The notes beneath the pieces are model-generated. The model was not told the DNA's origin and searched no databases. It was given only the letters and a program-made list of their open reading frames with translations. From a virus, in IMG/VR virus record IMGVR_UViG_3300003322_000573, positions 1-41,333 of that record: a stretch of DNA of 41,333 nt; one strand, 5' to 3'. Position numbers and translations under genes: made by a program. This document shows positions 831-24,781 of this stretch, one piece after another; positions within the stretch are counted from its first letter, which is position 1, and every line of letters begins with the position of its first letter.

Positions 831-1598
831 ATGAGCGACACCGATACCCAAGCAACTGGTGTAGTCGCCCCCGAAGCGCAAGCAGAGGACACGGCAACGA
901 CCCAGACAGGCATGGCCGGCGAGCAATCAACGACTACCCCCGAAGGAACTCAGGGTACTGGCGAAGGAGAAGGAACTTCACAGGCTGAGGTAAATACTGA
1001 GGATACGGTACACGAGGATAAGCTTTTTGCTGGCAAATACAAATCCGTAGAGGATCTTGAGAAATCCTACAAGGAACTCGAATCGAAGTACGGGAAAGAA
1101 GCGAGCGAGCGAGCTGAACTCACTAAGATTCTTAACGAGGCATTCATGGCTCCCGACACCACTACGCAGGTAACGGACACGGCTTACGATGACGCGGAAG
1201 GATCTGCTGTTACTGCATCTGTATCTGACAAAAAAGTAGCGATCTTGGAATTCATTCTGACCCATGACGATGCGAATCCTCAGGAGATGAGTGAAATCCT
1301 AAAGAATGACCCGATGATCGGTAAGATTCAGGGGGAAGACGCGAAACTTGAATATGCCTACTTGCGGGCTCAGAGCATGGGGCGCACGAAAGCCCTTGCG
1401 GAAGCTCAGAAGAAAGGCCAGGAACAGGCTCAGGTAAAGGTAGCAGAAAAACAGACTGCACGGGTAGAATCTGTTCAGAGAACTGAACCTGAAGACAGCA
1501 AGAACGAACTGCTTGAAAAGGCGACGGGTAATTACACACGTGAAGAGCGTGACCGTGCCCGCCGTGAGCTGATTAAGCGGAATCTTGTGAACCTATAG
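831..1598 (+). CDS. Putative scaffolding protein (255 aa)
   Basis: Acidic and helical, with a T/E/G-rich low-complexity N-terminus. Lies directly upstream of the capsid gene, the position of T7 gp9. Confidence 0.55.
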   Translation: MSDTDTQATGVVAPEAQAEDTATTQTGMAGEQSTTTPEGTQGTGEGEGTSQAEVNTEDTVHEDKLFAGKYKSVEDLEKSYKELESKYGKEASERAELTKILNEAFMAPDTTTQVTDTAYDDAEGSAVTASVSDKKVAILEFILTHDDANPQEMSEILKNDPMIGKIQGEDAKLEYAYLRAQSMGRTKALAEAQKKGQEQAQVKVAEKQTARVESVQRTEPEDSKNELLEKATGNYTREERDRARRELIKRNLVNL

Positions 1599-2655: not shown

Positions 2656-3009
2656 ATGGGAGGAATAATTACCTCTGATAGCGACGGTTTGAAAATGATA
2701 CGGCAGCCTCTGAAAGGAGAGGCTAAGTGGAAGGACATAGAAGACCTTATTAACCGCTGGGCGAAACGTAACAAAAGCGGTGCCTATGAACTTGAGCTAT
2801 GCGTTAGGTCTGCAAGAGACGAACTTGTCGACAAGAAGCACGGCCGCCTTGCTAACGAAGGTATGGCGAATGGCAGAATCGGCATTATGATTCACCCGGA
2901 ACTTGAGACGTACATAAAAGCTTTTTACCCGGATTTTCTGAGTACGAAAGATGATTTGCATGAATTCATGAAGCGCTTTCCTAAGTTTAAGGTACGGGAG
3001 GCAATCTAA
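2656..3009 (+). CDS. Hypothetical protein (117 aa)
   Basis: ORF track. AGGAGAG RBS. Its stop overlaps the next start. Confidence 0.7.
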   Translation: MGGIITSDSDGLKMIRQPLKGEAKWKDIEDLINRWAKRNKSGAYELELCVRSARDELVDKKHGRLANEGMANGRIGIMIHPELETYIKAFYPDFLSTKDDLHEFMKRFPKFKVREAI

Positions 3010-5360
3010 TGAAGCTGACGCTTACGCAGATATGCAAGGACGAGCTTAAAAACCTTGAGCGGCTTTACCCGCTCGTTAAAGATTATATTGACGAATGGAT
3101 TGTGGTGGTGCCGCCAAAAGACAAGGCAATTCCATTTTTAAAGGGCAAAGCGACCGTCATAGAGCAGGATTTTACGCAGCCAATTGAACCAGAAATACGG
3201 GACGAGATGAAGCTTTACGGCCTTGAAGTTGACAAAGACTACAGACTGTTTAACTTCGCCAGCGCACGTAACGCTGCCCTACAGGCTGCTACCGGTGACT
3301 ATGTGCTGTGGCTAGATGCTGACGACGAGCCGCTTGGCATGGAAAACCTGAAACTGTTCATACAAAAGAACCCACAGGCTGACGTATTCGATGCCGTATA
3401 TGACTATTTCAGGGATGAGGAAGGTAACCCGATTTCCGACCATGTGCGAGAAAGGATTATTGCTAACAATGGAAGATTTGAGTGGAAAGGCGGCGCCCTT
3501 GGCCTTATTCATGAGACGCTTTTGCCTAAATATGAGATTTATGAACCGCTACGGGTTGACATGCCGGACGTAATTTTCCGGGTAAGGCATCATACTGATC
3601 ATGTAAATGAATCTTCGCTTCGTAACCACGCGGCGCTTCTTTACGAGTACTTGAAAACCGATGGAGAAGACGCCCGCACGACATATTACCTAGGTATTGA
3701 GTACTTTAACCGCGGTATGTATGACTACTGCATTAAGGTACTGCAAGAGTACGTAAAAGTAAGCGGTTGGGACGAAGAGAAATACATGGCTTACGTGAAG
3801 ATGGGGGAAGCGTACCACATGTTAGGCGACTTTGAATCTGGACGTAATATGTACCTGACTGGCACGAAGGAAATGCCGCACTACCCGCATGCGTACCTTG
3901 GGATTGGCGAATCGTACTTTGAAGAGGAGAAATGGGCTAAGGCGATTGAATTTACTATGACTGGGTTACAGAAGAAGCTTCCCGCTACGAAGTATGTTGT
4001 TGATAAAACTCGTTTTACGTTCCGCCCTGCTGGATACATTGCGCTTTCGTACATGCAGCTTGGAAAACAAAACGAAGCATACGAATGGTTTATGCGTGCA
4101 GCTAAAATGAACCCGAAGCACCCGTGGATTAAACAGTACGCCCCAATTTTCCAGGAAGCGAAAGACCTTGACGACTATGTACGAAGCTTTGTAAAGCTGG
4201 GGCAACTGTCGCAGCGGCTTTACCCGAAGACGCTTTCCAAGTTAGCCGAAGCCGTGCCTGATGAGCTGATGGATCAGGAGCTGCTAATGGACTTTAAGTG
4301 GCGTTATTCTCGGCCTAAGGTATGGGAAGACAATTCGGTCGTGTTCTTTTGTTCGAGCGCGTTTGAGGACTGGGGGCCTGAATCATTGGAAAAAGGGTGC
4401 GGCGGGAGCGAAGAAGCGGTTATACAGCTTTCTAAGCGTCTTGTGGAGAGAGGATGGGACGTCACCGTATATAACAACTGCGTAAAAGAACGGACGGTAG
4501 ACGGCGTGAAGTGGATGCGTTTCGAACGGTTTAACCCGAGGGACGTATTTAATATTCTGATCGGCTGGAGAAACAACCCGTTTGTAGAGCCAAAGGTCGC
4601 TTCGAAAAAGTTCATTGATATGCACGATGTGCCGTCGATGCTTGCCTACTACCAGGAAGATACCCTGAAAGACGTAAAGCTTTTCGTAAAAAGCGAGTAC
4701 CACAAGAGCTTATTCCCAGGACTGGGAGAGGAAAAGTTCGCTATTATTCCAAACGGGATTGACCAGAACCAGTTTGAAAAAACAGACAAAGTGAAAAATA
4801 ACCTGGTATGGACAAGTAGTTATGACCGTGGGCTCGAGTACCTACTTGAGATGTGGCCGGATGTGAAAAAAGAAGTGCCAGATGCGACGTTAGATGTTTA
4901 CTACGGCTTTAACCTGTTTGATTCGACCCCTTGGGGCAAAAGACCAGAGGGACAGGCGTGGAAAGCGAAGATGGAACGCCTGCTTGGGCAGGGCGGCGTA
5001 ACTGACCATGGACGCGTAGGTACGGACGAAGTGGCAAAGGCATACTCGAGAGCTGACGTATGGGCATACCCTACTGATTTCCCAGAAATTGACTGTATTA
5101 CGGCTACTAAGGCCATGGCTGCGGGATGCGTACCGATTGCAACTGATTATGCGGTTATGAAAGAACGAAACCAGGGCGTAGTAGTAGCAGGAAGCGCATC
5201 TGACCCAGAGGTGAGAGAGGTGTTTAAGAAGGAGCTGATATCGCTTCTGCAAGACGATGAGCGAAAAGAAGAGATTAGAAAAAAACTAAATGTAAGCAAT
5301 TACTCTTGGGATAGCATTGCTGACCAATGGGATAAGGAGTTTCGATGGAATACGGACTGA
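3009..5360 (+). CDS. Three-domain glycosyltransferase: GT2-like N-terminus, TPR repeats, GT1/GT4-like C-terminus (783 aa)
   Basis: N-terminus: FASARNAALQAATGDYVLWLDADDEP (GT-A fold with DxD). Middle: TPR-like repeats (YYLGIEYFNRGMYDYCIKVLQEY, YVKMGEAYHMLGDFESGRNMY, AYLGIGESYFEEEKWAKAIEF). C-terminus: GGSEEAVIQLSKRLVERGWDVTVY and EIDCITATKAMAAGCVPIATDY (GT-B, group-1 type). Confidence 0.8.
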   Translation: MKLTLTQICKDELKNLERLYPLVKDYIDEWIVVVPPKDKAIPFLKGKATVIEQDFTQPIEPEIRDEMKLYGLEVDKDYRLFNFASARNAALQAATGDYVLWLDADDEPLGMENLKLFIQKNPQADVFDAVYDYFRDEEGNPISDHVRERIIANNGRFEWKGGALGLIHETLLPKYEIYEPLRVDMPDVIFRVRHHTDHVNESSLRNHAALLYEYLKTDGEDARTTYYLGIEYFNRGMYDYCIKVLQEYVKVSGWDEEKYMAYVKMGEAYHMLGDFESGRNMYLTGTKEMPHYPHAYLGIGESYFEEEKWAKAIEFTMTGLQKKLPATKYVVDKTRFTFRPAGYIALSYMQLGKQNEAYEWFMRAAKMNPKHPWIKQYAPIFQEAKDLDDYVRSFVKLGQLSQRLYPKTLSKLAEAVPDELMDQELLMDFKWRYSRPKVWEDNSVVFFCSSAFEDWGPESLEKGCGGSEEAVIQLSKRLVERGWDVTVYNNCVKERTVDGVKWMRFERFNPRDVFNILIGWRNNPFVEPKVASKKFIDMHDVPSMLAYYQEDTLKDVKLFVKSEYHKSLFPGLGEEKFAIIPNGIDQNQFEKTDKVKNNLVWTSSYDRGLEYLLEMWPDVKKEVPDATLDVYYGFNLFDSTPWGKRPEGQAWKAKMERLLGQGGVTDHGRVGTDEVAKAYSRADVWAYPTDFPEIDCITATKAMAAGCVPIATDYAVMKERNQGVVVAGSASDPEVREVFKKELISLLQDDERKEEIRKKLNVSNYSWDSIADQWDKEFRWNTD

Positions 5361-8177: not shown

Positions 8178-8546
8178 ATGGAAATAACCGTCGAAGACCT
8201 GCCAGAAGATTCGCTACAAACACAGTCCCCTCAGTCTGCCGCCAGGAGTGATTCGGTTGCGCATATGGCACTTGCCGACAGATTTAACGTAAGTAATCCT
8301 ACAAAGGAAGAAGAGGGAAAGCTTGCGGAAATATGGGCGCACGCACAAGGATTGGCAAAATCGGAGAACATCCAGGACGTTATATGGGAAGTCATTCATC
8401 TGGAGGGAATGCTTGGAGCGCCAAGGCTAGGAGAATCGAGGCTTGACCGTTTGTACCGCTATGCAAAGCTGAAACGGCAGGAATCGTACATACAGGAAGA
8501 ACTTAAGGGGGTCGCAGGTGTGGCGCTTAATGGTCGTGTACGATAG
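8178..8546 (+). CDS. Hypothetical protein (122 aa)
   Basis: ORF track. Follows the glycosyltransferase island. Confidence 0.65.
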   Translation: MEITVEDLPEDSLQTQSPQSAARSDSVAHMALADRFNVSNPTKEEEGKLAEIWAHAQGLAKSENIQDVIWEVIHLEGMLGAPRLGESRLDRLYRYAKLKRQESYIQEELKGVAGVALNGRVR

Positions 8547-8655
8547 CGGAAAACGGTACCTTATTCCGTTTGAAATAGTGGAAAAGCACGTCGACAAAGA
8601 TACCATTGAGAAGATAAAAAGCGACGCGTTGAAGGAAGTGCAGAAAACAGCATGA
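8530..8655 (+). CDS. Small ORF (41 aa), segment A of a possibly recoded or disrupted gene
   Basis: ATG at 8530 and TGA at 8653-55 (context UGA-C). The same frame stays open for 98 more codons downstream. Confidence 0.3.
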   Translation: MVVYDSGKRYLIPFEIVEKHVDKDTIEKIKSDALKEVQKTA

Positions 8656-9125
8656 CAAAGCGAAGAAAGTAAGTCACTTGACCAGAGAGAGCATAACAAC
8701 GACGCCTCTGCCAAGCGCGTTATAAACAGGGTATTTAACAGCGACACCGGGCAATGGGAGAACCAGCCTATAGGCGCCGGAAGACTTGTTTACGAACAGT
8801 TCGATTATGTAAGCCGCACCCTTACGAACTCGACTACTGAGACGTACACTTACAAGCTGGGAGGTTCTGGCGGTACAACGGTAGCAACCGTGGCAGTAGT
8901 GTATACCGATGCGACATTATCAACCATAAGCACGGTAACAAAATCGTAACGCTTAAGTTCAATCCATTGACGAGTGAATTTGACTTGGTGGGGTCTCCTT
9001 CTGCCGTGTACAACGTAAAAGACTACGGAGCTGTTGGTGACGTAATCATTAAATTTACGGTGAGTGCCGGGACATATAATTCTACCGTAAGGACGTTCTA
9101 CCACGCTGAGAGTTCGGCCACGTAA
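8656..9125 (+). pseudogene. Protein-like reading frames without start codons (segments B and C): a disrupted or recoded virion gene
   Basis: B (8656-8949, same frame as 8530) reads ...NSDTGQWENQPIGAGRLVYEQFDYVSRTLTNSTTETYTYKLGGSGGTTVATVAVVYTDATLSTISTVTKS*. C (-1 frame, to TAA 9123-25) reads IVTLKFNPLTSEFDLVGSPSAVYNVKDYGAVGDVIIKFTVSAGTYNSTVRTFYHAESSAT*. Neither has an in-frame ATG, GTG or TTG near its 5' end. Confidence 0.35.
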
Positions 9126-21367: not shown

Positions 21368-21380
21368 ATATAATTTAAGC

Positions 21381-21414
21381 CGCTTATTGAGGATTAGAGT
21401 TTTTATAGTAATGT
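21381..21414 (+). promoter_or_regulatory. Motif promoter P6: CGCTTATTGAGG-16 nt-TAATGT
   Basis: -35 at 21387-92 and -10 at 21409-14. No start codon follows; the predicted transcript begins at a helix (21421). Confidence 0.55.
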
Positions 21415-21888
21415 CTTAGGTAACGTTTGCTTAAATGCTTTTAGTAAACGTTAGGGCAAGAGAAAAGTCCCTTTCGGGACTAGTTGCTCAAATGCTTTAT
21501 GTTTATAACATAGCAAATGAGAACCTACTTGTCAACACTCGTGGGGAGCTGAAGACCATTACGGTGCTGATGCGAGTTAAAATAAGTGAAGCAATGAATG
21601 GCTCAAAGCTAGGCGTATGGCTGTGATACGCCCCAGTCGTTGAATGGATCAACGTATGAGAAATTAACTTCTATCATATAAAAGAAAAGTTAGGAAACTT
21701 AACAACGAACAGTAGTTACCAGGGGTACTTAAATCTGTTCAATGAGAAACCAAATTAGGGGAGTTAATAACGCGCCAGCCATTGAAAGCCGTGCAGCCGT
21801 CCACTTCAATGATTGGTGCACTTACTAACTCCCCCGGTAGTTTACGGAAAAGAAAGAGGAGTTGCTTAGAGACTTTAAAAATAGTATC

Positions 21889-21922
21889 CGCTTATTGAGG
21901 TAGGTACGTGTTGTGCTAGTAT
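21889..21922 (+). promoter_or_regulatory. Motif promoter P7: CGCTTATTGAGG-16 nt-TAGTAT
   Basis: -35 at 21895-900 and -10 at 21917-22. The predicted start (~21929) lies immediately before the terminator hairpin. The integrase gene lies beyond it. Confidence 0.5.
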
Positions 21923-21932
21923 TAGTTTTACG

Positions 21933-21964
21933 AGGCAGCAGTTCCCATATACTGCTGCCTTTTT
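21933..21964 (+). terminator. Intrinsic terminator
   Basis: AGGCAGCAG (21933-41) pairs with CTGCTGCCT (21952-60): 9 bp perfect, followed by TTTT. The T-run is on the + strand only. Confidence 0.8.
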
Positions 21965-22173
21965 AGTTATGCTTGCATATGTGGTGTGTAGCGTGTTAGA
22001 GTACCTGTACAAATTGCCGTTTTAGTCTGGGTAGGACTATAGGGAAGTCTTTTTATTAACAAGAATACACATTACATATGCAATTATTTTATTTTTATGT
22101 TCTAATATAGTAGACTGCTAGCAAAATAAATAGTTACCATATGTGAGAGGAGGGTAGAGAAAGGGATACGTGG

Positions 22174-23142: not shown

Positions 23143-23147
23143 GCGCA

Positions 23148-23176
23148 TTGACAAGCCGCTTAATGTCTGCTAGTAT
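23148..23176 (+). promoter_or_regulatory. Sigma-70-type promoter: TTGACA-17 nt-TAGTAT
   Basis: Perfect -35 at 23148-53, 6 nt after the int stop; -10 (TANNNT) at 23171-76. AAGCCGCTTA lies in the spacer. Points toward the tRNA fragment (antisense) and the 1.4-kb non-coding block. Confidence 0.55.
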
Positions 23177-23250
23177 AAGAACATACGAAACGGAAATAAT
23201 CCGTTCAGTCGAAACGATGACAATCTTACAAGGCCACGGCCGCAAGTAAC

Positions 23251-23299
23251 CGTCTCCGGTTTTGGAGACCGGTGCTCTAGCCACCTGAGCTACACTCCT
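23251..23299 (-). tRNA. Truncated tRNA-Trp(CCA): 5' acceptor strand, D-arm, anticodon arm and variable-loop start only
   Basis: The minus strand reads AGGAGTG-TA-GCTC-AGGTGGCTA-GAGC-A-CCGGT-CTCCAAA-ACCGG-AGACG. U8, A14, G18G19, U33 and A37 are all in place, and the anticodon arm is identical to E. coli tRNA-Trp (from memory). No T-arm or 3' acceptor strand follows. Confidence 0.7.
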
Positions 23300-23310
23300 A
23301 TATAGGAAAG

Positions 23311-23339
23311 ATTATATCATATCGTTTGATAATTCGGCA
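23311..23339 (-). promoter_or_regulatory. Extended -10 promoter (TGATATAAT) driving the tRNA fragment
   Basis: TGaTATAAT on the minus strand at 23319-23311, with a weak -35 (TGCCGA) at 17 nt. The tRNA 5' end lies 11 nt after the -10. Confidence 0.55.
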
Positions 23340-24727
23340 GTTAAAACAGTGACAATATGGGGTCATTGGAATAGTCGAATAATTGAATCGAGATTCATGC
23401 ATCCCTGTCTTGTTACTGATGGGGATTTTTCTTATCCTAGGCTCAAACGGCAATTTGTACCTAGGTAGGAAAAATCCCACCATTATCATATTCATGTAGG
23501 TACATGGCGGTACAAGGATTGGGAGATTTCTTGTACCGCTTAACCTAAGTTACATCCATTACTGGATATACAAGTAAACGGTAACTATAAGAAAACAAAA
23601 TCGTTAGCCAACGGGAGACGGTGAAGGCTCCTTACGAAAGTAAGATACTCCCTCTTATGTAGCCTACCAGAAGTAAGATCCATCAACCTAGTGATTGATG
23701 GTTAATTAGTCCGCACAGTGGTAAGACTAGGGCACGCCACCTTACTTCACTTGTATATTCAAACTGGCCATATAAGTAGTGTGGACTTCTATATCCCCTC
23801 GCCACGCGAAGCCTGTATTCGCGGCTTATATGGCTTGCCAGTAGTAAGTGGCGGGGTCTAATTGTACAGACACGGCCGCTTCAACGAGCTTTAAACTCGC
23901 CGAGATGCGAGGCAGGGAAACTGTGAGAAGTTTTCGACAGCGGCTTACTTCTGGCACCAGTAATGGATGTAACGAATGTTATAGAGCAGCAGTGAGGGAA
24001 CGGCTAATGTTTACACGCGAGGAGCCTTGCGGTGACTAGGCGGCAAGTGGCCATTGGATGATACAACCAAATAAAAAAACTACTCATTAGCCAACCGCCC
24101 CTCTCTCATGTTCTATAACACGTTAAGCGTAGTAGTGCTGGAAATGAACAATGTTATGTCATGACCGATAGACATAGGCACACAAAGGATCGGATCTGAG
24201 GTGTCTTCCCCTCATCAGGCAAGCTAGTAAAGACCTGATGAGTGCACGGAGCATCATTTCTAGCACCATATGCTTAACACCTCACATAGCAAGGTGAATC
24301 GGTAAGTGCGAACCAGCGAGTCCCCGTAAGGGTGGAATGAAACATCTGGGTAAATCTGAGGATGCTATCTAGGCTTAGCGGCCGACGTTAATCAGTGAAT
24401 CGTATTATCCGCGATAGCTGCCCTGCTGAAATGATGACGACCTTTCATCGGGTCTAGGCAGGTAAGAAGCGGAGCAAGCCATACTTACCTTATCGGTTCA
24501 TCCTGCTATGTGAATAGATACCAGGTTTTAGAACATACCAATGCTAGCAGTAACCGAAACGGCGAAAGCAATTCTGCAGCACAGCGAGTAACTAAGGCAT
24601 AGACGTTACTGCTAGCTTCGTGTGTTCTAAATTCCATGCACCTACATGAATAGTTGGCGGGTATGCGAGGCCCGCCAACGTTGAGAGTGGTGTTGGCGCC
24701 AGGTGATGCCCACCCTTACCTGGCGCT
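23340..24727 (+). ncRNA. Candidate giant (~1.4 kb) structured non-coding RNA or structured leader
   Basis: ORF-free in all frames. More than 12 long helices, including 10-13 bp perfect stems, nested multi-tier domains, GNRA tetraloops on the + strand and one pseudoknot candidate (details in findings). The strand assignment is tentative. Confidence 0.55.
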
Positions 24728-24781
24728 ATCTCTGCTCTTGAATGTATGTAAAAACAAGTAACTCGCCGGAAGGAGTGAAGT

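Follow-up and report, generated by a model that had tools for sequence, protein, structure and literature searches.

Introduction

Genetic elements that target tRNA genes usually recombine with the 3′ part of the gene, and the gene, once rebuilt, is left with its own promoter “with very few exceptions” (PMC8371274). The anticodon loop and stem resemble the 7-bp overlap and the core sites of tyrosine recombinases (PMC8371274). Recombination that involves the 5′ part is “considerably less frequent” (PMC6563490), the reported cases cited there being those of Zhao and Williams (2002), of Krupovic and Bamford (2008), of Gaudin (2014) and of Cossu (2017). With pTN3-like elements it is the integrase promoter that drives expression of the rebuilt tRNA, an arrangement “seldomly encountered in bacteria” (PMC8371274). 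Here we describe a locus of this less frequent kind in the IMG/VR virus record IMGVR_UViG_3300003322_000573, whose 41,333 nucleotides (nt), analyzed in full, are hereafter called the window. A tyrosine recombinase gene (int) is followed, 110 nt further on and on the opposite strand, by the 5′ part of a tRNA-Trp(CCA) gene preceded by a promoter. It is probable that this is a phage attachment site (attP) with its crossover at tRNA positions 36–41, and that the tRNA-Trp of a lysogen would have a phage-derived promoter and phage-derived nucleotides 1–35. The fragment itself is very likely the identity block of attP.

A tRNA-Trp 5′ Fragment Beside an Integrase Gene

Between 23299 and 23251 the minus strand reads AGGAGTG-TA-GCTC-AGGTGGCTA-GAGC-A-CCGGT-CTCCAAA-ACCGG-AGACG. 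This comprises the 5′ strand of the acceptor stem, U8A9, A14, a D arm with G18G19 and A21, and an anticodon arm with the anticodon CCA; the coordinates given in the initial annotation, which had been made from the sequence alone, are exact, and all the canonical features that it listed can be read. Nothing tRNA-like follows on the 3′ side. The T arm and the 3′ acceptor strand are both missing, as had been proposed, and ARAGORN calls no tRNA in the whole window. A second copy of the anticodon stem-loop, a T-arm motif, a usable 3′ acceptor strand (CACTCCT), any other piece of tRNA-Trp and any full tRNA are likewise absent from the rest of the window. The fragment does not amount to a complete functional tRNA gene with a four-arm cloverleaf.

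The covariance-model check that had been recommended gave a Rfam tRNA score of 27.6 bits (E=0.0044), below the gathering score of 29. This score is reached only with the T arm skipped by means of a 35-nt insertion, and the alignment closes the acceptor stem with CGUUUCG in a weak pairing that includes three G-U pairs and one mismatch. When 23143–24781 was compared by BLASTN with 2.3 Gb of phage records, tRNA-Trp genes alone matched (91% over 45 nt, E=2e-6), which argues that the tRNA-Trp origin of the fragment is not a matter of chance. These results support a genuine 5′ piece of tRNA-Trp beside a tyrosine integrase. The integrase is XerC/D-like, and Pfam detects no lambda-type arm-binding domain in it. 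The features of the region are listed in Table 1.

Table 1. Integrase, promoters and proposed attachment site in the window; relatives are designated by L numbers.
Feature	Position	Strand	Evidence or remark
Tyrosine recombinase (integrase, int), 322 aa	22174..23142	+	PF00589 (2e-28), PF02899 (Pfam)
P(+), TTGACA-17-TAGTAT with TG before the -10	23148..23176	+	Points away from int, across the core
Hairpin AACGGA-AATAA-TCCGTT, just past P(+)	23189..23205	.	Conserved; stems vary yet pair in L001, L002, L003
Int-side arm X, phage-specific, in place of the tRNA 3′ part	23206..23251	.	Alignment of relatives
Proposed 18-bp core GTCTCC (30–35), AAAACC (36–41), GGAGAC (42–47)	23252..23269	-	Given in tRNA sense; cleavage positions inferred
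tRNA-Trp(CCA) positions 1–41 (possibly to 43), identity block	23258..23299	-	Sequence, Rfam, BLASTN, relatives
P(-), extended -10 TGATATAAT	23311..23319	-	11 nt upstream of tRNA position 1; same sequence and spacing in L002

Relatives of the Integrase Module

Integrases at least 45% identical to that of the window are few, numbering only 7 among 5.8 billion proteins. The module around int is common to all seven (45–69%) and to one 36% identical relative, L150, which lies in the same phage backbone. With every locus read so that int is on the plus strand, the order is int, a conserved outward promoter P(+), a hairpin, a short arm and a piece of tRNA. The form of that piece distinguishes three types.

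In type A, comprising the window, L001 (int 69%), L002 (65%), L058 (63%) and L027 (47%), a 5′ tRNA part lies on the minus strand. Phage genes flank both sides in the window and in L002, which are therefore the free form, and the 5′ part (positions 1–41/43) is thus present in a non-integrated phage, as in reverse-orientation elements. The contig of L001 has phage genes upstream and breaks off within the tRNA piece. The halves differ from phage to phage, with acceptor strands AGGAGTG, AGGGGTG and AGGGGCA, varied D loops and a D stem of either GCTC/GAGC or GTAC/GTAT, yet each retains every canonical tRNA feature despite these differences, and in L027 the D-stem pairing is kept through compensatory changes. 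L058 shares the type A architecture, its 5′ part being that of a tRNA-Arg(TCG) gene (anticodon loop CTTCGGA). Because it retargets to another tRNA while keeping the architecture, it argues for a working attP.

In type B the plus strand bears a 3′ tRNA part that starts at about position 27. The int, P(+) and arm X′ of L026 (63%) abut the 3′ part of tRNA-Trp, after which come the terminator of that tRNA and host-like genes; this is a lysogen junction. L059 (45%) has the same layout, its contig ending in the T arm. In L150 a 3′ tRNA part with the anticodon TTG and a phage-borne terminator lead back into the backbone; this is the free form of the classical 3′ arrangement. Type C is represented by L003 (int 45%), from a metagenome-assembled genome (MAG) of Saccharibacteria, in which a full-length tRNA-Trp, on the minus strand, comes after int and P(+); beyond it are host genes that extend to secE, nusG, rplK and rplA. 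The tRNA-Trp of L003 stands at a host-prophage junction, and on our reading its D arm and 5′ half are on the host side. Two family members, L026 and L003, are thus found at host junctions beside tRNA-Trp.

L150 carries a perfect inverted copy of its 17-nt att core right past the int stop codon (1356–1372 and 1506–1522, CATGGACCAAAACCATG and CATGGTTTTGGTCCATG), so that the two copies bracket a 133-nt segment with P(+), which Int may be able to invert; in the window the core occurs only once. Between P(+) and the terminator L150 also has a 60-nt tRNA-like element without a D arm (1493–1552, plus strand), made up of TGGGGTA, a 6-nt linker, the anticodon arm (TTG), the T arm and CACCCCA-G-CCA, which the Rfam tRNA model scores at 31.8 bits (threshold 29) yet ARAGORN does not call. 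A pattern search of IMG/VR with GTCTYCGGTTTTGGAGACC returned 28 loci, mostly ordinary phage tRNA-Trp genes; three (L034, L048, L049) are tRNA-Trp-like genes with normal acceptor, D and anticodon arms, a GCCA end and a non-canonical T-arm region, all missed by ARAGORN. One more, L041 (IMGVR_UViG_3300046011_007592), belongs to an unrelated GC-rich phage, in which 2916–4177 holds a 396-aa tyrosine integrase gene and, behind it on the same strand, a 5′ part of tRNA-Trp ending after ACCGGAGAC; phage genes lie on both sides, with GP88, SNF2 helicase and 5′-3′ exonuclease genes nearby. It appears to be an independent case of a 5′-fragment att site, so the arrangement recurs in a phage unrelated to the window.

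The Slot in the Phage Backbone

The setting of the module in the phage backbone provides the strongest argument as to its function. In the backbone relatives L140 and L145 a terminator runs directly into a block equivalent to 23326–23478 of the window, and the ~90 nt of each contig upstream of that block contain neither int nor a tRNA piece. The segment from int to P(-) appears from this comparison to be an inserted cassette. Just upstream of the same block, the window and L002 have int followed by a 5′ tRNA part with a promoter, and L150 has int followed by a 3′ part with a terminator. Since one slot holds mirror-image solutions, each with the matching transcription signal, the fragment would serve to rebuild a tRNA gene, the cassette thus supplying whichever tRNA half and signal lie distal to int. 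A stretch of ~800 nt between the lysis genes and int (21370–22170), whose sole open reading frame (ORF) is a doubtful one of 63 aa, is probably the left part of this cassette, together with int and the att region.

The Proposed Recombination Core

Where does the tRNA similarity end? In L001 and L002 it ends at position 41, and the 3′ strands of their anticodon stems no longer pair. The sequence that comes next is GRAGAC in the window, L001 and L002 and AGAGAC in the tRNA-Arg version L058, jointly (G/A)(G/A)AGAC. The boundary thus falls just 3′ of the anticodon loop in four phages with two different tRNAs. In the window GGAGAC, the phage-specific half-site, forms a 6-6-6 inverted repeat with tRNA positions 30–35 around the proposed overlap AAAACC, so that a dyad-symmetric core with an overlap in the range of 6–8 base pairs lies at the end of the tRNA identity and next to a tyrosine recombinase gene, as expected of an attP. 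Seen from the int side, the core reads GTCTCC-GGTTTT-GGAGAC in type A and GTCTCC-AAAACC-GTAGAT in type B (L026); the two have the same half-sites with the asymmetric spacer flipped. We infer that the spacer is the overlap region and that its orientation relative to int decides which tRNA half becomes distal to int, hence which half is carried. In L027 the similarity extends to about position 55, in the T arm, and for this reason more distant family members may cross over elsewhere.

These comparisons bear on the possibility that the fragment is what is left of a decayed tRNA gene of the phage, or a scar produced when excision was imprecise, and so a non-functional remnant in a phage that does not integrate at tRNA-Trp or does so without restoring the tRNA. 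In its favor, L003 has a full-length tRNA-Trp at the same position and orientation relative to int, ARAGORN calls no tRNA, and the scans described below returned no lysogen of the window type. A full-length tRNA in a relative had been named in the initial annotation as a sign of simple decay; L003 does have one, but it is located at a host junction and not within the phage. A remnant would not be expected to share its truncation point and the following GRAGAC among the window, L001, L002 and L058, with two different tRNAs as source. L027 breaks later, in the T arm. The fragments keep all the conserved tRNA nucleotides and the D-stem pairing, in L027 through compensatory changes; the promoter is conserved at a fixed distance of 11 nt; and L150 has the mirror-image design with a terminator. 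Decay is accordingly an improbable explanation, and an attP identity block remains the preferred one.

Two Facing Putative Promoters

Both promoter sequences named in the initial annotation are present. L002 is the only relative whose contig extends to the position of P(-), and TGATATAAT occurs there at the identical 11-nt distance. P(+) is near-consensus and faces P(-) from the integrase side. Its hexamers are invariant in 6 of the 6 aligned members (window, L001, L002, L027, L003, L026), it is also present in L058, L059 and L150, and its family form directly after the int stop codon, TTGACA-17-TA.TAT with TG, is found in every member. P(+) is the best-conserved element of the module, being ~85% identical between phages with integrases only 36% identical. 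A promoter scan by itself is not significant (5 found against 3.3 expected), and for this reason the promoter calls rest on conservation.

The convergent arrangement had been proposed to make an antisense RNA to tRNA-Trp and to act as a transcriptional-interference switch. The proposed role is weakened, as the orientation of P(+) relative to the tRNA piece varies, being antisense in the window, L001, L002, L027, L058 and L003 and sense in L150, L026 and L059. Because every member of the module has P(+), with the sense orientation in some, its main purpose is unlikely to be antisense control of tRNA-Trp or a dedicated switch acting by interference. In the free phage P(+) points across attP into a conserved block, a large RNA and the early genes (see below). 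Integration would sever P(+) from all of these, and might plausibly in this way couple early transcription to the non-integrated state.

Between P(+) and the core lie the hairpin, which on the minus strand lies downstream of the tRNA piece as a weak terminator-like element, and arm X, which contains a conserved TCGA motif at 23209–23212. The arms of the window and L002 cannot be aligned except for conserved motifs at both ends.

Could the promoter and the tRNA half instead form a gene of their own, encoding a tRNA-half-like or arm-less RNA that acts as a regulator, as a defence decoy or as the sense/antisense partner of the P(+) transcript? The Rfam model does close an acceptor-like helix around the 35-nt insertion, the D-arm-less element of L150 exceeds the Rfam threshold, and the convergent promoters are conserved. 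The minus-strand RNA 23305–23183 is not unusually stable (z=-1.3), however, and on our reading its acceptor-like 3′ strand has no covariation in L002, where only 4 of the 7 pairs form; L026 has no acceptor mimic at all. A separate RNA gene would also leave the presence of the family at host tRNA-Trp junctions unexplained, and we give it little credence beside an attP.

A Model for Integration

The attP reading can be set out as a series of steps. Int would recombine the 18-bp pseudo-palindromic core with the host tRNA-Trp gene at its anticodon region, the strands being exchanged in or beside AAAACC. The orientation of the overlap would then place the host 5′ half beside int as a truncated, dead copy running into the hairpin. 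The resulting int-side junction would consist of the host promoter, host positions 1–35, the overlap, GGAGAC, arm X and the hairpin, and its predicted sequence is GTAACCGTCTCC / GGTTTT / GGAGACC, continuing into the tRNA 5′ part and then into non-phage DNA where the phage has ATATAGGAAAGATTATATCA. As a weak terminator-like element the hairpin would end the dead copy and may shield int from antisense transcription.

The other junction, at the opposite end of the prophage, would link the host terminator and host positions 76–42 to phage positions 35–1 and P(-) (TGATATAAT). The product would be a complete tRNA-Trp with the 5′ flank CGATATGATATAATCTTTCCTATAT and host DNA as its 3′ flank. By carrying a promoter and the 5′ part, the phage would keep the host tRNA-Trp intact and expressed in the lysogen. 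The acceptor stem of this product would pair a phage 5′ strand with a host 3′ strand, which would explain why each phage fragment has its own acceptor sequence; the AGGGGCA of L027 is complementary to the acceptor 3′ strand TGCCCCT of L026. The initial annotation had suggested an attP with a promoter and the 5′ part, and a chimeric tRNA as its product. The first suggestion now has comparative evidence, with a layout the reverse of the usual one, and the chimeric tRNA is still a prediction.

A different function for the recombinase would be that of a Xer/Cre-like resolvase or invertase acting on the core, so that it resolved episomal multimers or flipped a promoter and did not mainly integrate the phage. 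The XerC/D-like protein without a detected arm-binding domain would fit, as would the inverted cores that bracket P(+) in L150 and the fact that most relatives of the phage backbone have no integrase. Against this, the window has a single copy of the core, L003 and L026 are joined to host DNA at tRNA-Trp, and a long tRNA identity with a promoter or terminator would be pointless for resolution or inversion. Such a function is of low probability as the main one. Three other candidates can be dismissed together: a split or permuted tRNA and an int island inserted into a phage tRNA are both ruled out by the lack of a second core, T arm or 3′ strand in the window, and a functional T-arm-less tRNA is rejected by an acceptor-like pairing that is not kept in L002 and by a fold z-score of -1.3.

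Several points weigh against integration as modeled here. Window-type lysogen junctions (attL/attR) were not found in the genome, metagenome and viral scans; neither the order int, X, tRNA 43-to-1, host promoter nor the order host 3′ half, phage 5′ half, P(-) was seen. Far-junction lysogens were also sought through the neighbouring PD-(D/E)XK gene (985 homologues), and among the loci reached in this way L140–L146 had no tRNA piece and no host DNA, while L150 had the 3′ tRNA part described above. A host tRNA-Trp identical to the phage fragment was not retrieved in the database scans, and both promoters are consensus matches only. Nor is the family uniform: L027 reaches position ~55, L003 has a full tRNA, and the core is flipped in L026 and L059, so a single-core model may not be valid for all its members. 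Most phages of this backbone lack the cassette, for which reason lysogeny may be rare or recently acquired. Finally, the assignment to a Saccharibacteria host leans on a single named MAG.

It is conceivable, though unlikely, that the whole forms a portable int cassette able to switch its orientation, with tRNA-Trp under a phage promoter opposed by P(+), a promoter that in L150 could be flipped. Since the core is near-palindromic, a single integrase lineage could enter a tRNA gene in both directions, given a cassette with the matching half (5′ with promoter or 3′ with terminator). Were it true, the prophage would have a handle on host translation, for example for addiction or for control of tRNA-Trp dosage, and the tRNA-Trp would perhaps be the only copy in the host if that is a small-genome Saccharibacteria cell.

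The Phage, its Probable Host and an in-Frame UGA

Nearly all genes of this 41-kb phage genome are on the plus strand; among the products of the genome are an SU10-type capsid protein, a large terminase, an SH3 lysin, and PD-(D/E)XK and VRR-NUC nucleases. The sole named protein among the seven integrase relatives comes from the Candidatus Saccharibacteria MAG (L003), and the host is probably, on this similarity, a Saccharibacteria bacterium of the candidate phyla radiation (CPR). Close relatives were found in none of INPHARED, IMG/VR, GTDB representative genomes and JGI metagenomes. Comparison of the region (megablast, blastn) and of int (tblastn) with 50,697 phage records gave no relatives, tRNA-Trp genes alone being matched, and scans of IMG/VR with int peptides, the int alignment, the exact 44-nt tRNA piece and a promoter-plus-tRNA pattern returned nothing closer than 40% identity. 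One scan of genome contigs with the int alignment yielded only relatives of at most 36% identity, and one metagenome scan two distant matches.

A speculative link had been drawn between the tRNA fragment and an in-frame UGA at 8653, by way of D-arm changes of the Hirsh-suppressor type. The UGA is real (TGA 8653–8655), but nothing ties it to the tRNA site, and in its D stem, GCTC/GAGC (C11-G24), the phage fragment does not differ from the full tRNA-Trp of L003. There is accordingly no Hirsh-type change at position 24 relative to a native tRNA-Trp, that of L003 standing in for the tRNA-Trp of the host, and the link has no support. The TGA lies in a 143-codon frame of the virion module (8518–8949, plus strand) that is otherwise open. 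No ORF of at least 30 codons starts in this frame past the TGA, and the fetched loci of relatives contain no homologue of it; the sequence suggests readthrough or recoding rather than two genes.

Candidate Structured RNAs Downstream of the Att Region

Just downstream of the att region lies an unannotated, ORF-free stretch of ~1.2 kb (23480–24700, plus strand) that is a candidate for a highly structured RNA. Its minimum free energy is -431.6 kcal/mol, against -335.8 ± 10.2 in dinucleotide-shuffled sequences (z=-9.4); on the minus strand z is -6.9, and for three coding controls it lies between -1.8 and +0.4. The predicted fold has nested long-range helices closed by 23489–23507 and 24634–24652, and compensatory changes are seen in two helices. 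Homologues in L145 and L150 consist of blocks 94–100% identical, set between length-variable segments that cannot be aligned. L140 lacks the RNA and has ~31 nt in its place, for which reason it looks like an insertion. No Rfam family matches it, and it could be a new giant phage non-coding RNA in the style of GOLLD and ROOL. It is probably of more interest than the tRNA fragment. L002 and L144 have non-homologous, similarly structured, ORF-free stretches in the same slot between the att region and the early genes (L002 11722–12114 and 12115–13050, z=-7.6; L144 1075–1812, z=-6.5), L002 with an HNH_3 endonuclease gene there in addition.

Between P(-) and this RNA is a conserved block of ~150 nt (23326–23478, plus strand; AATTCGGCA..TGACA..GGGGTC..GTCGAA..ATCGA..), common to the window, L002, L140, L145 and L150. 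Two strong hairpins with GGGGAT in common, 23401–23426 (with a T run) and 23422–23478, form its end and resemble a terminator/antiterminator pair; the plus-strand fold of 23183–23480 has z=-6.1. The block may serve the early operon as a leader or as a regulatory RNA. In L141, a related phage contig, 10551–10663 (plus strand) matches the Y RNA-like family YrlA with 41.3 bits (E=9e-6), below the gathering score of 69.

Comparison With Known Systems

If confirmed, the locus would be that of a phage that, as it integrates, puts its own promoter and first half in place of those of a host tRNA gene, among viruses of probable Saccharibacteria (CPR) hosts, with both orientations occurring among related integrases and within one phage backbone. 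The family would offer a natural series of tRNA-targeting elements that switch target (Trp, Arg, anticodon TTG), orientation and the matching promoter or terminator. There is also a practical side, in that prophage-boundary software assumes 3′ tRNA fragments and would misplace the ends of such prophages.

An attP with a 5′ fragment and an element-driven tRNA is a rare but already described arrangement, and the concept itself is not new. The reverse elements of Zhao and Williams (2002; J Bacteriol 184:859), as represented in the papers that cite them (PMC6563490; PMC1635311), likewise carry the 5′ portion, and the RNA gene they restore (tRNA or tmRNA) is no longer driven by the host promoter, as in the model for the window. 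By comparison with that account, the window is a phage of a probable CPR host, has a dedicated extended -10 promoter 11 nt upstream, and has integrase relatives that include the classical orientation. The pTN3-like integrases of Thermococcales and the provirus TKV4 (Krupovic and Bamford, 2008; Cossu, 2017), as described in PMC8371274, also use the tRNA 5′ half as attB and restore an uninterrupted tRNA gene expressed from an element-borne promoter. Those archaeal integrases are “suicidal,” with an att site that lies within int, whose promoter drives the tRNA (PMC8371274), whereas in the window attP lies ~110 nt downstream of int, on the opposite strand and with its own promoter.

With the classical anticodon-loop attP (Williams, 2002; Campbell, 2003; as outlined in PMC8371274) the window shares an adjoining tyrosine integrase, a core at the anticodon stem-loop and a long identity block. 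The block in the window runs toward the 5′ end of the tRNA and not the 3′ end, and the proposed overlap AAAACC would be shifted relative to the 7-nt loop. In tRNA-dependent lysogeny (Guerrero-Bustamante and Hatfull, 2024; PMC10865867) integration at an essential host tRNA gene similarly requires tRNA function supplied by the phage. There the core measures ~10 bp, and the loss is made good not by rebuilding the tRNA but by a complete phage-encoded tRNA of the same isotype, whereas the window has ~41 nt of identity with a promoter and no complete tRNA, and does not belong to that class. What is particular to the window is the dedicated promoter, together with relatives that have the opposite orientation and other tRNAs.

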